A stretch of DNA of 13,467 nucleotides from an uncultured archaeon (GTDB lineage: Archaea > Asgardarchaeota > Lokiarchaeia > Sigyniarchaeales > SOKP01), in assembly GCA_964493715.1 (NCBI GenBank), contig CAZBPC010000072.1:1-13467 (forward strand), written 5' to 3'. A program made the translations under genes and the position numbers. Position 1 is the stretch's first letter, and each line of letters opens with the position of its first letter. A model generated the notes under the pieces. The model made no database searches. It was given only the letters and a program-made list of their open reading frames with translations, and was not told the origin of the DNA. Shown here piece after piece: positions 4,726-13,467 of the stretch.

Positions 4726-4741
4726 TTATAACTAGTTATAA
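4726..4741. promoter_or_regulatory. Perfect 16-bp palindrome, candidate operator at the start of the SIS-PfkB operon
   Basis: TTATAACTAGTTATAA is self-complementary and its last base is the A of ATG 4741. The operator role is inferred. Confidence 0.45.
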
Positions 4742-5988
4742 TGATGGATCAAAAAGATAAAATACTTAAATATGAGCAGAGGAAAAAGTTTGATTTTTTA
4801 GAAAATGACCCAATTGGTCGTATTGAAGCTACTACAGAATATCCTATCATGTATCATGCTTTAGGATCCAACCCACGCACGGAACATCCTTTTAACGTGT
4901 ATGATGATATTAAATCTGAACCTACTGCTATTGAGAAAACGCTTGAAATTGTATTGGATTCAATAAACCACGTTGTAGAGGAATTTTTAAGAAGAGAGAT
5001 CACGCACATCGTTGGAATAGGAATGGGTACTAGTCAATTCATAATGCAGGCTTCTGGACCTGCTTTTTGGGAGTGGGCTCACGTTACTTCGGAAGATAAG
5101 GATTCAGTAGAATGCCTTACTATTGATAAACCTTATGATTTTAAACACACTGCATTATTCGCATATAGCGGAAGTGGTAGTACAATTGATACAATATCGG
5201 CAACTAAAAAGTTAAAGGAAAAAGGGGTTTATTGTGTCGCGGTAACTTCAGTTGCTGGAAGCCCACTCACTAAAGAATGTGATGATGTAATAGTCTGTGC
5301 AGGAGGATTCGATACGGGAGGGTCGGATACTTTTCATTATGCAACAAGATTAGCGGCAAGTCTATTATTAGCTTTAGTACTTGGGGAGAAAAAAGGAATT
5401 AAAGACATAAACTTTCAAGATTTAAGAAATAAGTTGCATGAAATACCAAAATTGATGGTTGAAAGATGGGAATACAACGAACAGAGATGCAAGAGTGTTG
5501 CTACTAATGTTGATGATGTTCGAAGTGTAATCATTGTTGGAGCAGGCCCAAATTTTGGTACTGCAGAAGAAATGGAGTTGAAATTTGAAGAGATGGCACA
5601 TGTACCGGCTAAATCGATGGTTCCAACTCGTCATTTACATGGAGCACTAGGTTTAACCAATGAAAAAATCCTAACCATTTTGCTTTATCCCAAAAATAAT
5701 TCTGAGAAGTGGTTTACCCAAATTGCAAAATTTACACAGTTAGTTAAAAGTCCTTGTATCGCTATTTTACCAGATTCCGAAGAAAACATTGCTTCTTTAA
5801 TGGATTGGGTATGGCGTGTACCAATAGAAAATGAACACCTGTTTGGTTTGTATGTAGTACCTATTATTCAATTGTTACCCTATTTTTTTGCGCTTAAGCA
5901 AGGAACCATAAATCCAGATTGCCAAAAATCAAACATCCCGAAATATGCGAGGGCTTGGACGATGGTTTTAAAACCAGGAGGACATTAA
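4741..5988 (+). CDS. Double-SIS-domain sugar-phosphate isomerase/deaminase/deglycase (GlmS C-terminal / FrlB / AgaS-like)
   Basis: DIKSEP, GIGMGTS, YSGSGSTIDT, GSPL, VGAGPN..TAEEMELKFEEM, HLHGA and IQLL..A..G.NPD. There is no glutaminase domain. Confidence 0.88.
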   Translation: MMDQKDKILKYEQRKKFDFLENDPIGRIEATTEYPIMYHALGSNPRTEHPFNVYDDIKSEPTAIEKTLEIVLDSINHVVEEFLRREITHIVGIGMGTSQFIMQASGPAFWEWAHVTSEDKDSVECLTIDKPYDFKHTALFAYSGSGSTIDTISATKKLKEKGVYCVAVTSVAGSPLTKECDDVIVCAGGFDTGGSDTFHYATRLAASLLLALVLGEKKGIKDINFQDLRNKLHEIPKLMVERWEYNEQRCKSVATNVDDVRSVIIVGAGPNFGTAEEMELKFEEMAHVPAKSMVPTRHLHGALGLTNEKILTILLYPKNNSEKWFTQIAKFTQLVKSPCIAILPDSEENIASLMDWVWRVPIENEHLFGLYVVPIIQLLPYFFALKQGTINPDCQKSNIPKYARAWTMVLKPGGH

Positions 5989-6930
5989 ATGGGATTTAAG
6001 ATTGGAGTAGTAGGACCATTAAATATCGATATCATAATAAAGGGAAAAGCGCCTAGTAATTTACAAGAATTGAATGCCTGGTCTGGACCATCAGACATAC
6101 ATGTATTAGCTGCTGGAGCAGCGGGTTATATATCACAAAATTTTCAACAATTGGGTAATGAAGTTCACATTGTCTCTTCTATTGGAGATGATTCTTTCGG
6201 TAAACTGATTTTAGATATTTTAAAGAATTCAGGAATTAATACAAAATACATCTTGGTCGAACAAGGTAAGGAATGTGCTTTAGCTATCTTCATTTTACTC
6301 TTCGGCAGTGATAAACGACCTCTAACATTTCGATTACCAACTCACAGTGGATGGCCCCAAAAATTTGGAAAAAAAGTCGAAAAGTTCTTATTGAATACCG
6401 ATCTTCTGCATTCTGCAGGATATTTTCACTTCCCAAACCTGTGGAATGAAAACTTTACCGCATTACTTAAAAAAGCAAAATCTCAAGGTTTGAAGATATC
6501 AATGGACCCTCAGTTTCCATTATCAATGCTAGAACCTCCTTGGATTAACATTTTAAAACCATTAATCCCCTATATTGATATACTTTTGGTGGATCAATAT
6601 GAAGCCCTGAACATCACAGCTGAAGATTCAATTGAAAAAGCTGCTAAAACACTCTCAGAAGAGGGTTTTAACATAATCGCTATTAAATTAGGTGATAAAG
6701 GAGTACTCGTGAAAAATGCATCTATCATGAAGTACGTTCCTGCTACACAGCCTAAAAGATTTGTAGACACTATTGGAGCTGGAGATGCGTTTGATGCTGG
6801 TTTTTTACACGCGTTGTTAGAGGGAAGAGATTTAGTAAAGTCTGCCGAAATTGGTATATCAACTGCAACTAATAGCATTCAAAATGTGGGGGGCATAATT
6901 AATTTTTCTACAGTAGAGAAATTTATCTAA
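5989..6930 (+). CDS. PfkB/ribokinase-family carbohydrate kinase
   Basis: VVGPLNID, SIGDDSFG, KLGDKG and the signature VDTIGAGDAFDAGF. The start abuts the upstream stop (TAA-ATG), suggesting translational coupling. Confidence 0.93.
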   Translation: MGFKIGVVGPLNIDIIIKGKAPSNLQELNAWSGPSDIHVLAAGAAGYISQNFQQLGNEVHIVSSIGDDSFGKLILDILKNSGINTKYILVEQGKECALAIFILLFGSDKRPLTFRLPTHSGWPQKFGKKVEKFLLNTDLLHSAGYFHFPNLWNENFTALLKKAKSQGLKISMDPQFPLSMLEPPWINILKPLIPYIDILLVDQYEALNITAEDSIEKAAKTLSEEGFNIIAIKLGDKGVLVKNASIMKYVPATQPKRFVDTIGAGDAFDAGFLHALLEGRDLVKSAEIGISTATNSIQNVGGIINFSTVEKFI

Positions 6931-7307
6931 CTTACTGCTTTCGTAATTTAATTAAAATTCCTATGAAATAGTTTTATGAGGTTCTATTTTTCTATTCGAT
7001 TTTTGCATGGAATAAAGTCTTATAATATTATAAAGGCAAAATATAGAAATTTTTACAGTTAATATTACTAAAAGCAAGGTTTTAAAATAGTCATAACTGC
7101 TGGCGAAAGGATCAACTATTTGCAGATAGAGGGTATATAAACAAATCAGTAAATAGATGAATTGCGCCAGAGAAATCCAAAAAACGATGATTACTTAGCT
7201 CTTTATTTTGACTTTATAACGCTAATCGTAAATTGGGTATCTTTCCTGAAAACTTGAGGGTTTTATAATCCAAATATAATAAAAAGTTAATTAAGATTAA
7301 AAGGAAG

Positions 7308-8435
7308 TTATCTATCTCTATGTCGTAAGGTACTAGGAATACTTTTATCAGCCTGAGTAGTACTTTCTGGCGAATCAGATGATGAGCTTAAAGGGCGATA
7401 TTTTAATCTTCCAGGCTTCTTCCTGATAACGTGAGTAGTGGAAATTACTGTTAATATTGTAATTGAACCGATTGTTATATAGGTCCAAGGAAGATCAAGT
7501 AAATTAAACAGATTGTTATGAGGTAAAAACCAAAGCAACTTTGTATCATAAGTACCATTGGATACTTGCCCTAAATTAATGTATATCACTCCATTATTTG
7601 AAGGGATTGAAGAAGAAGGCAATGTCACATTTACTGTAGTCATTGTACCATCTGTTATCGCAAAATCATTCCATTCGTATTGTACCTCATATAAACCCGT
7701 TGATGCCCTCAATGGTATTCCAGAGGGTGAGAAGATCAGATTAGCACTCGAATTAAATGATAATTTTAGAGTTAAAGATGATGGTACGTAGTTAACGAAA
7801 GTCAAACGTGATTTTAGCTCATTTGGTGCTAATAATCCAACTTGACGCCCAAGTAACACGTGTTCGCTAGAGATATAAAATTCTGCATTGAATACCCCAT
7901 CACTAGATGAATATCCAGAATAGTAAGCAGGTTGTCCATCAATCCCATAACCGATATTCTCAAGCGTCAGGTTTGTTAATGCCGTTTCTCCGATAATTAC
8001 ATCTACTACTGGGTCAAAATATCCGTTACTATCGACATCTAAGAAGTCAATTAGCGACTTGTATTGCATTTTAAAATCTAATATCGGTATTCCTGTTGAG
8101 ACATCATCATACAAGTTCGATTGAATCGCTAAATGAGAACTAAATCCATGGGAAAGTCCTAAATTATGACCTAATTCATGACCGGTGGTTGTTGGAATAG
8201 TTCCAGTATCATAGGAACTGAAAGTGAGTAGTTCATCAGTTACTTCGAGGAACAACGGGGTTCTTAACCTGTCTTCTTCATTATCTGGAACAGAGTCACC
8301 ATCATTATCTAAGATCTTTGTAATATCGTTATATATAACCATTCCAAGAGAAAAGCCAGAAATCATGCTGAAAATTAATAACAATACGCCTATATTGACG
8401 TGAGGCTTATCTCTCTTAAAATTTTCTTTAGACAT
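7308..8435 (-). CDS. Hypothetical surface protein with N- and C-terminal TM helices, Ca-binding-type Asp motifs and an HExxHxxGxxH motif
   Basis: 375 aa from ATG 8435 (the ORF track starts at upstream TTG 8477). It has a basic N-terminus plus hydrophobic helix, DNDGDSVPDNEE, HELGHNLGLSH, DVDSNGYFD, a beta-rich body with 4 sequons (NLT, NSS, NVT, NGT), a C-terminal TM followed by RKKPGR, and a Ser-rich tail. Confidence 0.8.
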   Translation of the reverse strand: MSKENFKRDKPHVNIGVLLLIFSMISGFSLGMVIYNDITKILDNDGDSVPDNEEDRLRTPLFLEVTDELLTFSSYDTGTIPTTTGHELGHNLGLSHGFSSHLAIQSNLYDDVSTGIPILDFKMQYKSLIDFLDVDSNGYFDPVVDVIIGETALTNLTLENIGYGIDGQPAYYSGYSSSDGVFNAEFYISSEHVLLGRQVGLLAPNELKSRLTFVNYVPSSLTLKLSFNSSANLIFSPSGIPLRASTGLYEVQYEWNDFAITDGTMTTVNVTLPSSSIPSNNGVIYINLGQVSNGTYDTKLLWFLPHNNLFNLLDLPWTYITIGSITILTVISTTHVIRKKPGRLKYRPLSSSSDSPESTTQADKSIPSTLRHRDR

Positions 8436-8749
8436 TATAATTTCTCTACTTTTTAATTTCAGTTTTAGTACACTCAATTCTAGAATAAAATAGAAAAATC
8501 TGTCGATTATTTTATATTCACGAGGATTCCAAACGCCTTATAGATAAGTTGGCTTTATTAAATTAACTTTTTAATTTATAATTTTGAATTTAATCGGTTT
8601 ACTAAAATAACAGATTATGGTTAAAACTTTAAAGAAAACCAATATGAATTTCTGAAAAAATTCTTTAGACAAATCCTAAGCCATAAATACAAAAGATTAA
8701 ATCAATCCTTTTATTATTATATCATAGGTTAACTTGATTTAAATGAATT

Positions 8750-8765
8750 AAAAAAGATTATATAA
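8750..8765 (+). promoter_or_regulatory. Candidate BRE + TATA for the regulator gene
   Basis: AAAAAAGA-TTATATAA lies about 65 nt upstream of the CDS, in an AT-rich context. Confidence 0.3.
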
Positions 8766-8828
8766 TTCAAATTAACATTAATACTCAAATCAGTAATATA
8801 AGATTGTTTGATCTAATAATTATAGGCA

Positions 8829-9623
8829 TTGGGAAGCATATTGATAATTAATCAAATATTATTTGAACTATCCAACGAGGAGCGATTACGAGTATTCAAA
8901 GCATTATTCAATGAAAAGAAGAAACATAGTGATCTTGAACAGGAACTTAGTTTACCAGGATCTGAAATTTCTCGTCATCTTAAACGGTTAAATGAAAGCC
9001 ATCTTATTCGTAAATCTCTCAATCATCAATATTCAATAACAAATTTAGGTAAAATATTTTACCAATTATTAGATATTTTTGAGGTGTCAATAAAATTAAG
9101 AGAATTTTTCAATACCCATTCAATAACTATGATTCCCTTAGATCTCATATTGCAATTAGGAAGCATAAAAACGATCGAACTTGGCACTAATACGATCCAA
9201 AACCTTGAATTATATAGTGATATGATAAAAAATGCTGAGAGTGTCATTTACATCACCATGCATCAAGTTCAGAATTCAATAATCCCAATATTCGAAAAAA
9301 AGATTCAAAATAAATCAATGGATATTCGAGTTTTAGTTGATAAAACCGTATTAATTTCTAGTCAAAATTCGGGGTTAGAAACTTTAAATCGTCAGGATCC
9401 TGAGGATTTTTTCAAGAAAGTAGATCTATTAAAGCCTGTGAAAATTTATGATAATACACTTGATTTTTCACTGTTAATCACTGATAAAGGAGCAATGCTA
9501 TTCTTAGATAAAGATGGGGAAATTGATTATAATCAATGCTTATTGGATAATAACAAATCCTTTATAGAATGGACAACTGAATTATTTGAATATTCTTGGG
9601 AAAAGGGAAGTAATTTGCAATAA
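8829..9623 (+). CDS. Archaeal winged-HTH (ArsR-like) transcriptional regulator with a DUF1724/FilR1-like C-terminal domain
   Basis: The HTH-wing reads LFELSNEERLRVF...LSLPGSEISRHLKRL...LI.K....YSITNLGK. It is followed by FFNTHSITMIP, and the C-terminus FSLLITDK.AMLFL..DG.ID...FIEWTTELFEYSW is typical of this archaeal family. Start is TTG 8829 or 8841. Confidence 0.85.
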   Translation: MGSILIINQILFELSNEERLRVFKALFNEKKKHSDLEQELSLPGSEISRHLKRLNESHLIRKSLNHQYSITNLGKIFYQLLDIFEVSIKLREFFNTHSITMIPLDLILQLGSIKTIELGTNTIQNLELYSDMIKNAESVIYITMHQVQNSIIPIFEKKIQNKSMDIRVLVDKTVLISSQNSGLETLNRQDPEDFFKKVDLLKPVKIYDNTLDFSLLITDKGAMLFLDKDGEIDYNQCLLDNNKSFIEWTTELFEYSWEKGSNLQ

Positions 9624-9666: not shown

Positions 9667-10779
9667 TTAAAGCCCATTAGTGATTTTTGAGGAATAATTG
9701 AATACTCCCGGAGAGATTCCTCTTTTTAAAGCTGTTTTATAACACATTAATTGTAGGATTATAATTTCCATAATGGGAGCTAAAATAGGATTTTCGATGT
9801 TGTGTCGAAAAACGATTAGTTTAGGATTGTTTAAGAGCAATTTATCCTCTGAACTCATTTCTTGGTTGGTTACATATAATAACGTTCCAAAAGCCCATTT
9901 TGAAATGAGATTTTCAATGAATCGAATGTTTAGTTCATTTTCGATGGGATTAGAAGTTATGAGTATTATTCGAGTACGTTCATTAAGAGATTCAATTCCA
10001 CCATGCCTAAAAGTTGACACCGTCGTTGCTTCTGATTTAATCTTAACAATTTCTTTAAAGTTTAAGGCTCCTTGGGACGCAGTTGACATGGAAGTTCCCC
10101 TGGCGAGTATCTGAATAAATTGATATCCATTTCCAAATTCTTTATCGATTGTATCAAATATACCACCAAGATTTTCATTATCACTAAGAAAGTTCTTTAT
10201 ATTTGTAATTAGAGATTTTATTATTTCAATTTCAGTCACAGAATCAAAAAAATGGATAATTAATGAACGAGCAAGCACATATAATACTAATAAAGAACAG
10301 GTGTAAGATTTGGAGGTCACGGATTCCTCAATTCCCACGTTTAAAAATAATTGGGCATCTGTATGGGTAGCCAAAAAACTGCTTGAATCATTCGTGATAC
10401 TTATTGTGTAGGGTTTTAGTTTTGATGATTGGATTGATTTAATTAATTCGACTATTTCTCCAGACTCACCTGATTGGGAAACTAAAACAATGGCACTATC
10501 ATCAGAAATTTCTTTATTACTTTGAGGGAACCCATAAAGGAGAAATTCGCCAGCTTCTATACGCTCGACATCAAAACCAGCTTGCCTTAGCATGTAAAAT
10601 GGAATGTAAGTGCAAAAGAAACTTGATCCCATACCCGTAAAAATAAATTTCGTAATATGGTGAAGCTCTATATAATTTCTGATATTATCTAATGATGTTT
10701 TCTGGTTTTTAATAAGAAAGTTAAAACAAGCGTCTATCATTTTTCCTTGAGATAAAATTTCATCTAATAAATGCGTCAT
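9667..10779 (-). CDS. Double-SIS-domain protein, GlmS-isomerase / glucosamine-6-phosphate deaminase (GlmD)-like
   Basis: EILSQG, FTGMGSS, VSQSGESGE, ITND.SS.LA, EESVTSKSYT, LARG...ALNFKE, FRHGG and C-terminal PGVFNYSSKIT. It lies 14 bp downstream of the GH38 gene. Confidence 0.88.
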   Translation of the reverse strand: MTHLLDEILSQGKMIDACFNFLIKNQKTSLDNIRNYIELHHITKFIFTGMGSSFFCTYIPFYMLRQAGFDVERIEAGEFLLYGFPQSNKEISDDSAIVLVSQSGESGEIVELIKSIQSSKLKPYTISITNDSSSFLATHTDAQLFLNVGIEESVTSKSYTCSLLVLYVLARSLIIHFFDSVTEIEIIKSLITNIKNFLSDNENLGGIFDTIDKEFGNGYQFIQILARGTSMSTASQGALNFKEIVKIKSEATTVSTFRHGGIESLNERTRIILITSNPIENELNIRFIENLISKWAFGTLLYVTNQEMSSEDKLLLNNPKLIVFRHNIENPILAPIMEIIILQLMCYKTALKRGISPGVFNYSSKITNGL

Positions 10780-10793
10780 AATTACTCAATGGG

Positions 10794-13467
10794 TTAGGAT
10801 ATTGTATTTTTTTCAAAGTTACACTTGAAATTTACTTTTACAGTAGCTATAACATGTGGATCAAGTGAGAGATCGATATTATTCTTTTCAATTAGTTTAA
10901 CATTCGCTTTTATCTTATTAATTGGATTTTCTTCCAATAAGTTAACGATTTTAGCTGACATGATCTGTAAATCATCCCAAAATGATAATTTACCTATTTG
11001 AGGTTGTGCTGAAAGATTATAAAGGCGTATAATCATATCATCTCCTTCCTCTGCTTTTTTTAGGATACTTAAGGCAATCGATTTATTATCGATAGAAAGG
11101 AATGAAAATTGAGCTGGTAGAAACGATTTCCTCTCAACATGCTTTTTAAGACGATAGGGATATAAAATGCCAAGTGGTGCCAATATTATTCTATCATTAG
11201 CCCCCATATTGGTGTTTATCATCGCAGGACAGAATGCCATCAAGGGATTGCTAAATTCTTGACCATAACGATGTAAATTTTCTAACCCATGGTTATTATT
11301 TTCAATGATTAAGGAAAGTTCAAAAAGATGAGAGCCTATACATTGTGCCTCTGGTGTATTTAAATCAGGTCCCGCATTAATATCTCGCGAATTTAAATCA
11401 AACCGGGATAACCATTCGACACAACGCAATAATGTTATTCCTAATGTAACCTTCCCGTTATCATTTTTAGTTGCGTCATATTCTGGGAGACCTTTATTTA
11501 AAATTGCATGGGTTCTATTATTATCGCTAACTGCAACAAATTGTTCATTATAATTAGTAGTTGTTGGTTTCTGGTTCCAATCACTTCCCTCTGGAATGTC
11601 AACAGGACGGGAAATAACATGAAAATGGCCATCACTTTTAATTTCCTCAGTTTTAATTGATGTGGGAAATTTAATGCGAAGTTTATGATCTCTGCTTTTA
11701 TTCTCCACATTTATGTCAATGTCTACTCTTCTAATGGATTCATATACTGTGAGAGTAATTGAAATTGGATTAGAAACCAAAATTTCTTCTCTTTTTTTAC
11801 GGTCACTACTTAATGATATAGGTAATTTAAAATCATATTCTATTAACAAGGATTTGCTTATTGAACCATATATTTGCGTTGACACATTTAAAGGAAGATT
11901 ATTTTTTGTGGAAAATACTGTATCACTTTGTCCTTTTCTTGGACCTGAGAAGTCATAAAGATCACCCCAGTCCCCAATATCATCGACTTGGTATATATTT
12001 TTATACCATACCTGGCTTTCCTTATCAAATAGTGTTACTTCTCCGTTATCTGCAGCGGTAATTTTATAATATTGATTTTCAATCATATTATTAGTTGAGA
12101 TTATATTGGTGTGTTGTTGATCCTGTAAGGAACTCGTATTATTAGGCTTTAAGTAATAAATACTAAATCCACAAGCTGGAATTTCCCCGATAAATTCACA
12201 TTTATAACTTTTTGAATTAACATGTCGAAACCTTGGGACTTCATTGACTTCTTTGATTTGATATTCAATTTCCTTATCATTGTAATCGCATAAATTGAAG
12301 TTTTTCGCTGCTTTAATCCCCACTCTCTTCATATCAGTGAGGATATTAAACTGAACAACATCTCTTCTTTTCCAAGGTAACGGATTATAAACGACCAAAT
12401 GGATGCGATCCACGGCATCTTCTTGAATGTGTATTACCTCATCCAATGTTAAAAGTGAATTCTTTAATACTTCTAAGCCCATTTGTTCTGCCCAAAGGTA
12501 TCGAATTTTCATTTCTTCATATACTTGGTCTATAGAACATCCACATATAGAATCATGCGGGTGGTTCTTTAACAACCATTTATACCCATTTAGAATGAAT
12601 TCAGAAGGATATTTGAGGTTTCGATGGTTATTAACCACCCATGTGATTGTAGATAAAGGTTCTATGTATTTCTCATAAAGATGTTCGATTCGAGAATTGA
12701 GTTGTTTGACCCACATTCTGGTAGACAAAACTCCGGAAAGAAGATGAATGTATTTACTTCCTCTTAATTCTCCCTCATAACTTTGTAGGTTTGGTTTACT
12801 GGCCATAACTTTATTAACATATTCCTCGAAATTCCCCAATTCCATGCATTTTTCAGGATTTAACTCATTCCATTGGTCTACAATTTCTGGTAGCACTGGA
12901 TTAGCAAAAGAATGATCCGTACCACTATTTAATAGTATTACTGGTGTAGCGGTAAAATTTTCTAGTTTTGATATTGCCCAATTTAACTTTTGAAGCGCTT
13001 TTTTATAAACGCCATTTTTTTTCTTAGTACTTAAATTGGCAACTGAGCCATAACTTAATTTCATGACGCTTGCTAAAACTGAAGCTGCATTTCCAGGAGA
13101 TTTCCAAAAAAACTCAATATTTAGACCTTTTTTTGAGAACTGATTGCCAAGACCTCTCCAAAACAAGACTGCGGGAATTTCGAATCCTTGTAAAATTTGA
13201 GGGAGTTGAGCGATATGGCCGAATGGATCGGGGGTATATCCTACTTTCATTACACTACCGAATCGCCTCGCAATTTTATGTCCTATCATTAAGTTTCGAA
13301 TTAAAGATTCTCCACTAACTAAGAATTCATCAGGCATTACGTACATTGGTCCAACTAATAACCTTCTTTCTTGAATAAGGTTTTTAAGTTTAAACTCCTC
13401 ATCTGGTTTGATTTCCAGATAATCTTCAATTAAAATAGTCTGACCATCTAATGTGAAGCTTTTATAT
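10794..13467 (-). CDS. GH38 alpha-mannosidase (MngB/SpGH38-like subgroup), 5'-partial
   Basis: The frame is open from the window edge: YKSFTLDGQTILIEDYLEIKP...LLVGPMYVMPDEFLVSGESLIRNL. It also has GYTPDPFGH (nucleophile Asp at 13227-13229), NSGTDH, GELR, SGVLSTR, NHPHDSICGCSID, YNPLPW.R, N.GLPEY, TLLR and K.AE..D..IIRLYN. ATG 13346 in the ORF track is an internal Met. Confidence 0.95.
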   Translation of the reverse strand, partial: YKSFTLDGQTILIEDYLEIKPDEEFKLKNLIQERRLLVGPMYVMPDEFLVSGESLIRNLMIGHKIARRFGSVMKVGYTPDPFGHIAQLPQILQGFEIPAVLFWRGLGNQFSKKGLNIEFFWKSPGNAASVLASVMKLSYGSVANLSTKKKNGVYKKALQKLNWAISKLENFTATPVILLNSGTDHSFANPVLPEIVDQWNELNPEKCMELGNFEEYVNKVMASKPNLQSYEGELRGSKYIHLLSGVLSTRMWVKQLNSRIEHLYEKYIEPLSTITWVVNNHRNLKYPSEFILNGYKWLLKNHPHDSICGCSIDQVYEEMKIRYLWAEQMGLEVLKNSLLTLDEVIHIQEDAVDRIHLVVYNPLPWKRRDVVQFNILTDMKRVGIKAAKNFNLCDYNDKEIEYQIKEVNEVPRFRHVNSKSYKCEFIGEIPACGFSIYYLKPNNTSSLQDQQHTNIISTNNMIENQYYKITAADNGEVTLFDKESQVWYKNIYQVDDIGDWGDLYDFSGPRKGQSDTVFSTKNNLPLNVSTQIYGSISKSLLIEYDFKLPISLSSDRKKREEILVSNPISITLTVYESIRRVDIDINVENKSRDHKLRIKFPTSIKTEEIKSDGHFHVISRPVDIPEGSDWNQKPTTTNYNEQFVAVSDNNRTHAILNKGLPEYDATKNDNGKVTLGITLLRCVEWLSRFDLNSRDINAGPDLNTPEAQCIGSHLFELSLIIENNNHGLENLHRYGQEFSNPLMAFCPAMINTNMGANDRIILAPLGILYPYRLKKHVERKSFLPAQFSFLSIDNKSIALSILKKAEEGDDMIIRLYNLSAQPQIGKLSFWDDLQIMSAKIVNLLEENPINKIKANVKLIEKNNIDLSLDPHVIATVKVNFKCNFEKNTIS

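Follow-up and report, generated by a model that had tools for sequence, protein, structure and literature searches.

Residues 1-18 of bacterial elongation factor EF-Tu are the stretch sensed by plants as the elf18 pattern, and EF-Tu is among the best-studied proteins, yet to our knowledge its N-terminal arm has no agreed partner. We describe a copy of this arm at the start of a membrane protein encoded by an uncultured archaeon of the Asgardarchaeota (Lokiarchaeia, Sigyniarchaeales). The stretch of DNA analysed, hereafter the window, spans positions 1 to 13,467 of contig CAZBPC010000072.1, which is 17,068 bases long and belongs to a genome of 3.68 Mb in 160 contigs, with 31% G+C and 100% complete by markers. 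A minus-strand open reading frame (ORF) at 7308-8435, starting with the ATG at 8435, encodes 375 amino acids followed by a stop codon. Its codons 1-16 (bases 8388-8435) specify the product start MSKENFKRDKPHVNIG, a copy of the EF-Tu N-terminal arm together with the start of strand beta-1, from which the protein continues at once with a hydrophobic helix, VLLLIFSMISGFSLGMVIY. An in-frame TTG at 8477 was discarded as start codon because relatives carry stop codons just upstream of the M-S-K-E start. The family to which the protein belongs shares with bacterial EF-Tu (TIGR00485, PF00009) the register from Met1, the invariant residues F6, R8, K10, P11 and H12 and the variable positions 7, 9 and 13. 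In contrast to EF-Tu, the Asgard protein lacks the P-loop, the G domain and domains 2 and 3, having a membrane helix instead, and whereas E4 is fixed in the Asgard family but not in EF-Tu, N14 is fixed in EF-Tu but not in the Asgard family. We conclude that the captured EF-Tu start is genuine and strongly selected.

Twelve of the 16 residues are identical to E. coli EF-Tu (start as printed in the PDB search) in register from Met1, as an earlier note on this DNA had observed, and the window protein carries the bacterial-type arm K-E-x-F-x-R-x-K-P-H in that register. The same note's assignment of the peptide to the bacterial rather than the archaeal type also holds, as the host's own aEF1A starts MSSKVKPHLNLVIIGHIDHGKST, without the four-residue F-x-R segment. 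A PDB search with the 24-residue N-terminus of family member P0055 returned 56 distinct sequences at E<=10, of which 53 are EF-Tu, bacterial or mitochondrial, with a best match at E=1e-5, while the three matches that are not EF-Tu all have E>=0.49. Full-length native EF-Tu chains align query residues 1-21 on chain residues 1-21, tagged, fused and mitochondrial chains being offset. Four EF-Tu models, alone among 18,950 NCBIfam models, match the same 24 residues (profile positions 1-21, E=2.2e-5); the window's own 24 residues match at profile positions 1-18 (E=0.0017), the models scoring 10.7-12.9 bits on the window protein against cut-offs of 449-522. The last residue of the likeness, G16 in the window protein and I18 in relatives, falls just short of the P-loop, again in agreement with the earlier note. 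In place of the P-loop G-H-V-D-H-G-K-T the window protein reads VLLLIFSMISGF after G16, and a Pfam scan of the 375-residue protein detected no match at E<=0.01 to PF00009 (translational GTPases) or to any other Pfam family.

The peptide can be found verbatim in real EF-Tu proteins. When one genome per prokaryotic species was scanned for K-E-K-F-V-R-D-K-P-H, at least 120 stretches matched; among the matches listed, at least 102 continue into the P-loop, at least 14 end at the edge of the stretch and are EF-Tu-like as far as readable, and at least 4 are not EF-Tu. At least 11 bacterial EF-Tu genes among the matches listed start MSKEKFVRDKPHVNIGTI, identical at 18 of 18 positions to the start of many family members. 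In an unbiased sample of 117 metagenomic EF-Tu starts, anchored on the P-loop, one (MAKENFKRDKPHVNVG, locus L193) agrees with the window peptide at 14 of 16 positions. At the nucleotide level codons 1-16 agree with tuf genes at a maximum of 39 of 48 bases (median 33), which is roughly what the common amino acids dictate, and the proposal that the archaeon itself captured the 5' end of a tuf gene is not borne out.

Database homologues of the 375-residue protein number 85, at 41-100% identity. The full peptide is present in 74, three begin inside it as a result of start calling and eight are fragments lacking the region upstream; a different start was seen in none. Their named sources are metagenome-assembled genomes (MAGs) of Promethearchaeota/Lokiarchaeota, Thor-, Heimdall-, Hod- and Odinarchaeota and one MAG labelled Bathyarchaeota. 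The stretch is present in 22 runs labelled salt marsh metagenome, which date from a single year and perhaps one campaign, and one of which may be the source of the assembly. In two others of these 22 runs, contigs span 8329-8900 without differences, so that the spacer upstream is joined to the codons of the peptide and these to the codons of the helix. A chance resemblance, or an artefact of assembly or editing, had been left open by the earlier note. Either is contradicted by the exclusive matches to EF-Tu in NCBIfam and nearly exclusive matches in the PDB, by the identity of many members to real EF-Tu starts over 18 residues, by the 20 motif matches against 3 for a control pattern in 398 Asgard genomes and by the recurrence of the peptide in independent assemblies; the probability left to these explanations is negligible and we regard both as excluded.

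The peptide is the most strictly conserved part of the protein. In an alignment of 59 members, mean pairwise identity is 0.913 for residues 1-16 compared with 0.51 for helix 1, 0.575 for the outside domain, 0.505 for helix 2, 0.72 for residues 336-346 and 0.475 for the tail, and eight of the alignment's 15 invariant columns fall in residues 1-12 (M1, K3, E4, F6, R8, K10, P11 and H12). K3, E4, F6, R8, K10, P11 and H12 are constant in all 78 Asgard N-termini. Two distant members, P0091 and P0092, retain only 24-28% identity overall (profile-free search) and still start with M[AS]KEKFVRDKPH. Paralogues further removed begin with what resembles an ordinary signal peptide and have a single helix, at the C-terminus.

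The peptide occupies the N-region ahead of a membrane helix, as the earlier note had stated, and an ordinary explanation would be a positive segment that orients the signal anchor, or a good translation start, with its constancy arising from recent origin or from constraint on DNA or RNA. The four K/R ahead of the first helix fit the positive-inside rule, and codon 4 (GAA) is invariant in 10 loci. However, synonymous variants occur at 14 of the 15 codons from 2 to 16 in 10 distinct loci, and the 45 pairs of these loci show 272 synonymous and 60 non-synonymous codon differences over the same codons; this free synonymous variation indicates that the constraint acts on the protein and not on DNA or RNA. 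Nor does the explanation accommodate a peptide that is unchanged while identity over the remainder has fallen to 24-28%, paralogues whose ordinary N-regions show no such conservation, or a bacterial family, described below, in which a signal peptide comes first and the EF-Tu-like peptide is set back about 26 residues from the start of the frame. A plain N-region is therefore very unlikely and close to refuted, and the translation-enhancing leader suggested by the earlier note finds no support, in view of the same codon differences and the same bacterial family. We consider it very probable that the start was copied from EF-Tu, became fixed throughout the family and is selected at the protein level more strictly than any other part of the molecule.

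The peptide is not confined to proteins of this size. The pattern K-E-x-F-x-R-x-K-P-H has its 20 matches in 19 of the 398 Asgard genomes: 11 in the large family, seven in small two-helix proteins and two that appear chance-like, 18 of the 20 being membrane protein starts. No bacterial-type EF-Tu with this pattern was detected in the 398 genomes. The seven small proteins have 85-97 residues with the peptide at the start (preceded by M in five) and mostly end in KGKKILQN. They belong to a family of miniproteins of about 90 residues and two helices (P0123-P0161; loci L039 478-753 on the minus strand, L043 and L179-L185) which comprises 39 database clusters labelled Thorarchaeota, 35 with the full motif. 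Both ends of the miniproteins are near-invariant, MSKEKFVR.KPH.NIG at the start and KGKKILQN at the end, with the loop motifs YPD..LPG and SSLRD, and P0091 (337 residues) has a miniprotein-type C-terminus which bridges the miniproteins to the large family. Two undescribed Asgard membrane protein families are thereby defined, the large 375-residue type and the miniproteins. The ESM Atlas gave no usable match for residues 1-24 of P0055, EF-Tu families being excluded, or for miniprotein P0123. As far as a full-text literature search reached into the publications it covered, no description of the Asgard families or of an EF-Tu start on other proteins was found; the publications carrying a peptide string contain, in the parts retrieved, the E. 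coli-type string only and concern plant immunity, mostly elf18/EFR.

A third carrier is bacterial. A 162-residue protein from a Deltaproteobacteria MAG (locus L162, 6915-7403) matches PF06841 (Phage_T4_gp19) at E=2.3e-16 from model position 10. It belongs to a family of 15 tail-tube-like proteins. In 12 of these (P0106-P0117), the 162-residue protein included, AKE.F.R.KPH comes immediately after the A-x-A at the end of a predicted signal peptide, and in place of the peptide the three most distant members have an ordinary tube start. The stretch coding for the peptide agrees with the start of the MAG's own tuf gene at 40 of 45 bases. A second piece is common to the two families. Just after helix 2 the Asgard family has RKKPGR[VL]KY, which in P0071, P0077, P0078 and P0079 extends with [SG]DITLKKG(Y), and the bacterial counterpart is RK.PGRTTYS.ITLKRGY. 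Profile comparison with hhalign aligned both ends of the Asgard family with the tube-like family, the N-terminus over 17 columns (probability 94.8%, E=5.4e-8) and the columns of the C-terminal tail over another 17 (probability 92.9%, E=3.6e-7). The PF06841 hairpin K-x-P-G-R-x-x-Y-x-x-I-T-L-K-R-G is thus represented by its first half in the window protein and by its full form in P0071, P0077, P0078 and P0079, and residues 335-356 of P0078 match PF06841 positions 39-60 weakly (22 residues, 12.3 bits against a Pfam cut-off of 28.2, E=0.15). A whole PF06841 tube domain was not detected in the window protein at E<=0.01.

The tube-like proteins and the Asgard protein therefore carry the peptide, AKE.F.R.KPH.N[VI] in the former, and the hairpin RK.PGR..Y[SA].ITLKRGY in the same order, but they differ in what lies between and around them. 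The two motifs are about 30 residues apart in the tube-like proteins as opposed to about 320 in the Asgard protein, where a helix, the outside domain and a second helix intervene; the tube-like proteins are about 165 residues long with a soluble tube fold and the peptide placed after a cleavable-looking signal peptide, whereas the rest of the tube fold is missing from the Asgard protein. The occurrence of two collinear segments in both families suggests that the peptide may have arrived through or with the PF06841 family, and the route of capture probably involves this bacterial tail-tube-like family. The Asgard protein would on this basis be a chimera in which a unit of helix, outside domain and helix was placed between two short pieces that co-occur in tube-like proteins, the N-terminal piece stemming ultimately from a bacterial tuf gene. 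We consider a chimeric origin about as probable as its absence.

On a 194-kb viral contig (IMGVR_UViG_3300023235_001889; locus L311, 192855-194073), a tuf gene (695-1219 of the locus) is split by a group I intron (Rfam RF00028 at 738-958, 99.2 bits, E=3.4e-26). The gene is interrupted right after G-T-I-G, one codon before the P-loop, the frame resumes with HVDHGKTTL, and the ORF upstream resembles a homing endonuclease as judged by eye. The split lies 1-3 codons from the end of the EF-Tu likeness in the Asgard and tube-like families; that a homing site at such a position explains the common breakpoint is speculation.

Much of the pattern of conservation within the peptide is common to EF-Tu, Asgard and tube-like starts. 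In the 117 EF-Tu starts F6, R8, K10, P11 and H12 are present in 111, 116, 117, 108 and 117, respectively, and all five are present in 78 of 78 Asgard and 12 of 12 tube-like starts, while positions 7, 9 and 13 vary in all three groups alike. E4 is invariant in the Asgard and tube-like families only, being E in 52 of the 117 EF-Tu starts. Per-position entropies of the Asgard and tube-like starts correlate with a Spearman coefficient of 0.87, which is not a strict test as the sequences are related. The alternation suggests an extended strand with one bound face, and the low model confidence for this segment in both the Asgard and the tube-like protein, given below, fits a flexible arm. We propose that the peptide would be a docking strand with a single invariant face, made up of residues 4, 6, 8, 10 and 12 (E, F, R, K and H), variation being tolerated at 5, 7 and 9; that it would be held at the inner face of the membrane beside helix 1, probably acting with the RKKPGR.KY segment after helix 2; and that it would bind a cytoplasmic partner or a neighbouring copy and thereby couple the outside domain to the cell interior. 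This mechanism is put forward tentatively, as somewhat less probable than the chimeric origin. For the reading as a whole, that is a copied and selected EF-Tu start, a chimeric origin and a docking strand, we estimate a probability of roughly 0.5.

The orientation on which the mechanism depends was predicted from the sequence. Kyte-Doolittle windows of 19 residues exceed 1.6 from starts at residues 12-18. The ratio of K/R to D/E is 4:2 in the N-end, 3:7 after helix 1 and 10:4 in the tail (residues 336-375), and N-x-S/T sequons are kept at N269 (57 of 59 members) and N293 (55 of 59). Both ends of the protein are thus predicted to be cytoplasmic, with the beta-sandwich outside. In an AlphaFold2 model of the 375-residue protein (mean predicted local distance difference test score, pLDDT, 77), a helix at residues 15-41 is followed by a confident beta-sandwich at 62-303, a second helix at 317-335 and a disordered tail. 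On the minus strand of the window the predicted cytoplasmic peptide is followed by membrane helix 1, the signal-anchor (residues ~17-37, 8325-8387, at the hydropathy peak), the outside domain (7488-8324, strands at residues 62-303 with pLDDT mostly 80-95), membrane helix 2 (7431-7487), RKKPGRLKY just inside the membrane (residues 338-346, 7398-7424) and a basic C-terminal tail, DKSIPSTLRHRDR (7311-7349), with the alignment consensus EKRIPSxLRHRDR, predicted to be cytoplasmic and disordered. Within helix 1 the segment S29-L-G31 is conserved, which would fit either signal-peptide cleavage or packing of the helix.

In the bacterial family the corresponding segments can be followed into a predicted assembly. 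The AlphaFold2 model of the tube-like protein has pLDDT <50 for residues 15-35, with VNVGV forming the first strand at 39-43. When residues 27-162 of P0106 were folded as four copies, a score of 0.80 was obtained compared with 0.00 for the best of three controls. Of 30 proteins solved as same-chain pairs 20 reach the mark applied, as does 1 of 23 single-chain structures. At least 84% of contacts recur between the runs with a partner pLDDT of at least 81, and since solved tail tubes exist the predictor may be reproducing known rings. Residues 35-38 and 40 (KPHV.V) and residues 71-76, 78-79 and 81 (PRKIPG, TT and S) lie on the same side of the interface.

Several observations weigh against the proposed origin and mechanism. 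PF06841 occurs in nine of the 398 Asgard genomes, in none of the 19 motif carriers and not in the window's own genome; a resident tube protein was consequently rejected as the partner. No other partner was found, as the ORFs beside 11 related loci all differ by Pfam (amidohydrolase, F420 dehydrogenase subunit, Tpt1, response regulator, methyltransferase, JAB, GNAT and others). The predicted topology derives from charge counts and paralogues. AlphaFold2 leaves the N-end (mean pLDDT 49 for residues 1-10) and the tail (below 50 for residues 335-365) unstructured, and no contact between them is readable from the output. The Thorarchaeota-type miniproteins and P0091 keep the peptide without RK.PGR and end in KGKKILQN, which indicates that the two pieces need not act together. 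Finally, the predictions put the bacterial peptide outside the cytoplasm and the Asgard one inside, making a single common protein partner unlikely.

The opposite placement bears equally on whether the peptide functions as a mimic of EF-Tu, in which case the membrane-bound peptide would dock in trans on the host's aEF1A or on another factor that reads the arm, tethering or titrating it. The conserved positions do coincide with those of EF-Tu itself, the host aEF1A lacks the corresponding segment and the predicted location of the peptide is cytoplasmic. Small proteins with an EF-Tu start are found in phages, too. A tblastn search with EF-Tu residues 1-30 identified ORF27 of Haemophilus phage Aaphi23 (NC_004827.1, 15126-15305; locus L323, 2501-2680, in the nin region) and VPDG_00052 of Vibrio phage henriette (NC_021073.1, 40045-40224; locus L324, 1489-1668), both of 59 residues, and weaker matches in Erwinia jumbo phages. 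The first 26-30 residues of the two 59-residue proteins copy EF-Tu, including the P-loop, and an unrelated basic tail follows; copying of the EF-Tu start is therefore a recurring strategy. These proteins resemble the Asgard family in that a short EF-Tu start is grafted onto an unrelated protein, but the phage copies extend through the P-loop, are soluble and occur in hosts that possess EF-Tu, whereas the Asgard copy stops before the P-loop and is membrane-bound. In a motif scan of a viral collection all 17 stretches were true tuf genes or fragments, and no viral tube protein with the peptide was found. Against mimicry, the identical face is present in the bacterial family with a signal peptide, where the protein is predicted to be exported and no elongation factor is expected. 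E4, moreover, is invariant in two families that are not EF-Tu and is fixed only there, which points to a constraint of their own. We regard mimicry as improbable.

No greater weight is given to a processed leader or sorting tag, in which the 16 residues would be cut after G16, or read by a dedicated peptidase or sorting machine, and the likeness to EF-Tu would be history. G16 is present in 71 of 78 starts with the hydrophobic helix directly after it, the bacterial peptide lies exactly at the predicted processing site A-x-A/AKE in 12 of 12 members, where a defined free N-end seems to matter, and the same tag recurs in two Asgard architectures that differ greatly. Against this reading, archaeal leaders of class III (pilin-type) are short and basic, end [KR]-[GA], with K or R required at position -2, and are cut ahead of a hydrophobic helix; here position -2 is I in 72 of 78 starts and never K or R. 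No dedicated peptidase gene lies nearby in any of the loci examined, and a tag that is removed would not be expected to retain a one-face pattern identical to that of EF-Tu. A processed leader is thus also improbable, and a docking strand remains the preferred account of the peptide.

A broader possibility, to which we attach a rather low probability though a higher one than to mimicry or processing, is that EF-Tu residues 1-12 or 1-16 constitute a portable, domain-crossing recognition tag whose face, E/x-F-R-K-H, is read by a widespread reader. The putative reader may be a protein; it may also be a ligand that carries phosphate, for example RNA, a nucleotide or the head group of a lipid. In Asgard archaea the tag would then sit at the inner end of a receptor-like surface protein and on a 90-residue membrane miniprotein, and bacteria and phages would use it on exported tube-like proteins and on small early proteins, respectively. 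If true, the strict conservation of the EF-Tu arm would reflect the reader and not only the folding of EF-Tu. The observations are of consequence for EF-Tu in either case: the arm is kept letter for letter in archaea without EF-Tu, as the most conserved part of a protein outside translation, and its presence on Asgard, bacterial and phage proteins argues for a transplantable function of its own. The 15-residue peptide, one face of which bears five invariant side chains, provides a handle on that function, and a chimera that would probably have run from bacterium to archaeon connects the Asgard families to tail-tube proteins.

The outside domain of the large family, one of the two Asgard families, has a predicted fold resembling that of the eukaryotic lysosomal protein GLMP (glycosylated lysosomal membrane protein). 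Foldseek placed the GLMP luminal domain first (6nyq_C, E=1.8e-9, TM-scores 0.49 and 0.57), with 8r8q_B also matched, so that GLMP is represented both alone and in complex with the transporter MFSD1, its partner; supersandwich domains of GH38 enzymes and polysaccharide lyases come next. As in GLMP (6nyq and 8r8q), the model has a beta-supersandwich outside the membrane, then a membrane helix and a short tail of basic character. Sequence identity, however, is about 10%, and the fold is common to many glycoside hydrolase and lyase domains; GLMP furthermore has one helix and no EF-Tu-like start, as opposed to two helices in the Asgard protein. The arrangement seen in GLMP, a signal peptide, the sandwich and a single helix, is also that of the wider Asgard paralogue family, whose members often come as tandem pairs. 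No link between GLMP and the Asgard proteins was found in the literature search.

Two conserved motifs of the outside domain may bind metal. HELGHNLGLSH (8148-8180, minus strand) has H86, E87, G89 and H90 conserved in at least 90% of members. The zincin motif H-E-x-x-H is expected in an alpha-helix, and AlphaFold2 places residues 89-95 in a beta-strand of the sandwich; zincin family models gave sub-threshold matches only (E 0.016-0.37). The string is therefore not read as a protease centre and may be a metal site instead. An acidic motif of the calcium-binding type, D-x-D-G-D-x-x-x-D-x-x-E (8274-8315, minus strand), has D43, D45, D47, D51 and E54 invariant, and P0079 shows a weak Excalibur match (E=0.096).

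The gene at 7308-8435, a member of an Asgard-only family, is surrounded in the window by genes assigned by Pfam to two SIS-domain proteins, a PfkB kinase, a GH38 mannosidase, a DsbA-like protein and a membrane-anchored DUF3604 protein. Sugar-handling genes are abundant around it (648-2828, 4741-6930 and 9667-13466), the GH38 alpha-mannosidase overrunning the end of the window. These surroundings fit a glycan-related role of the outside domain only loosely, because relatives lack such a neighbourhood. Contigs of two RNA-library runs cover parts of 7202-8267, although RNA-library contigs may hold DNA, and none covers 8268-8435, so that the RNA data show neither transcription nor the 5' end. A FilR1/ArsR-type regulator (8829-9623) is divergent from the 375-residue gene, a pairing that is not kept in relatives. 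An A+T-rich element lies about 54-86 bases upstream of the ATG (8489-8521, minus strand); judged by eye, boxes resembling it recur in the upstream stretches of at least six related loci (L009-L013 and L015), and it looks like a shared archaeal promoter box.

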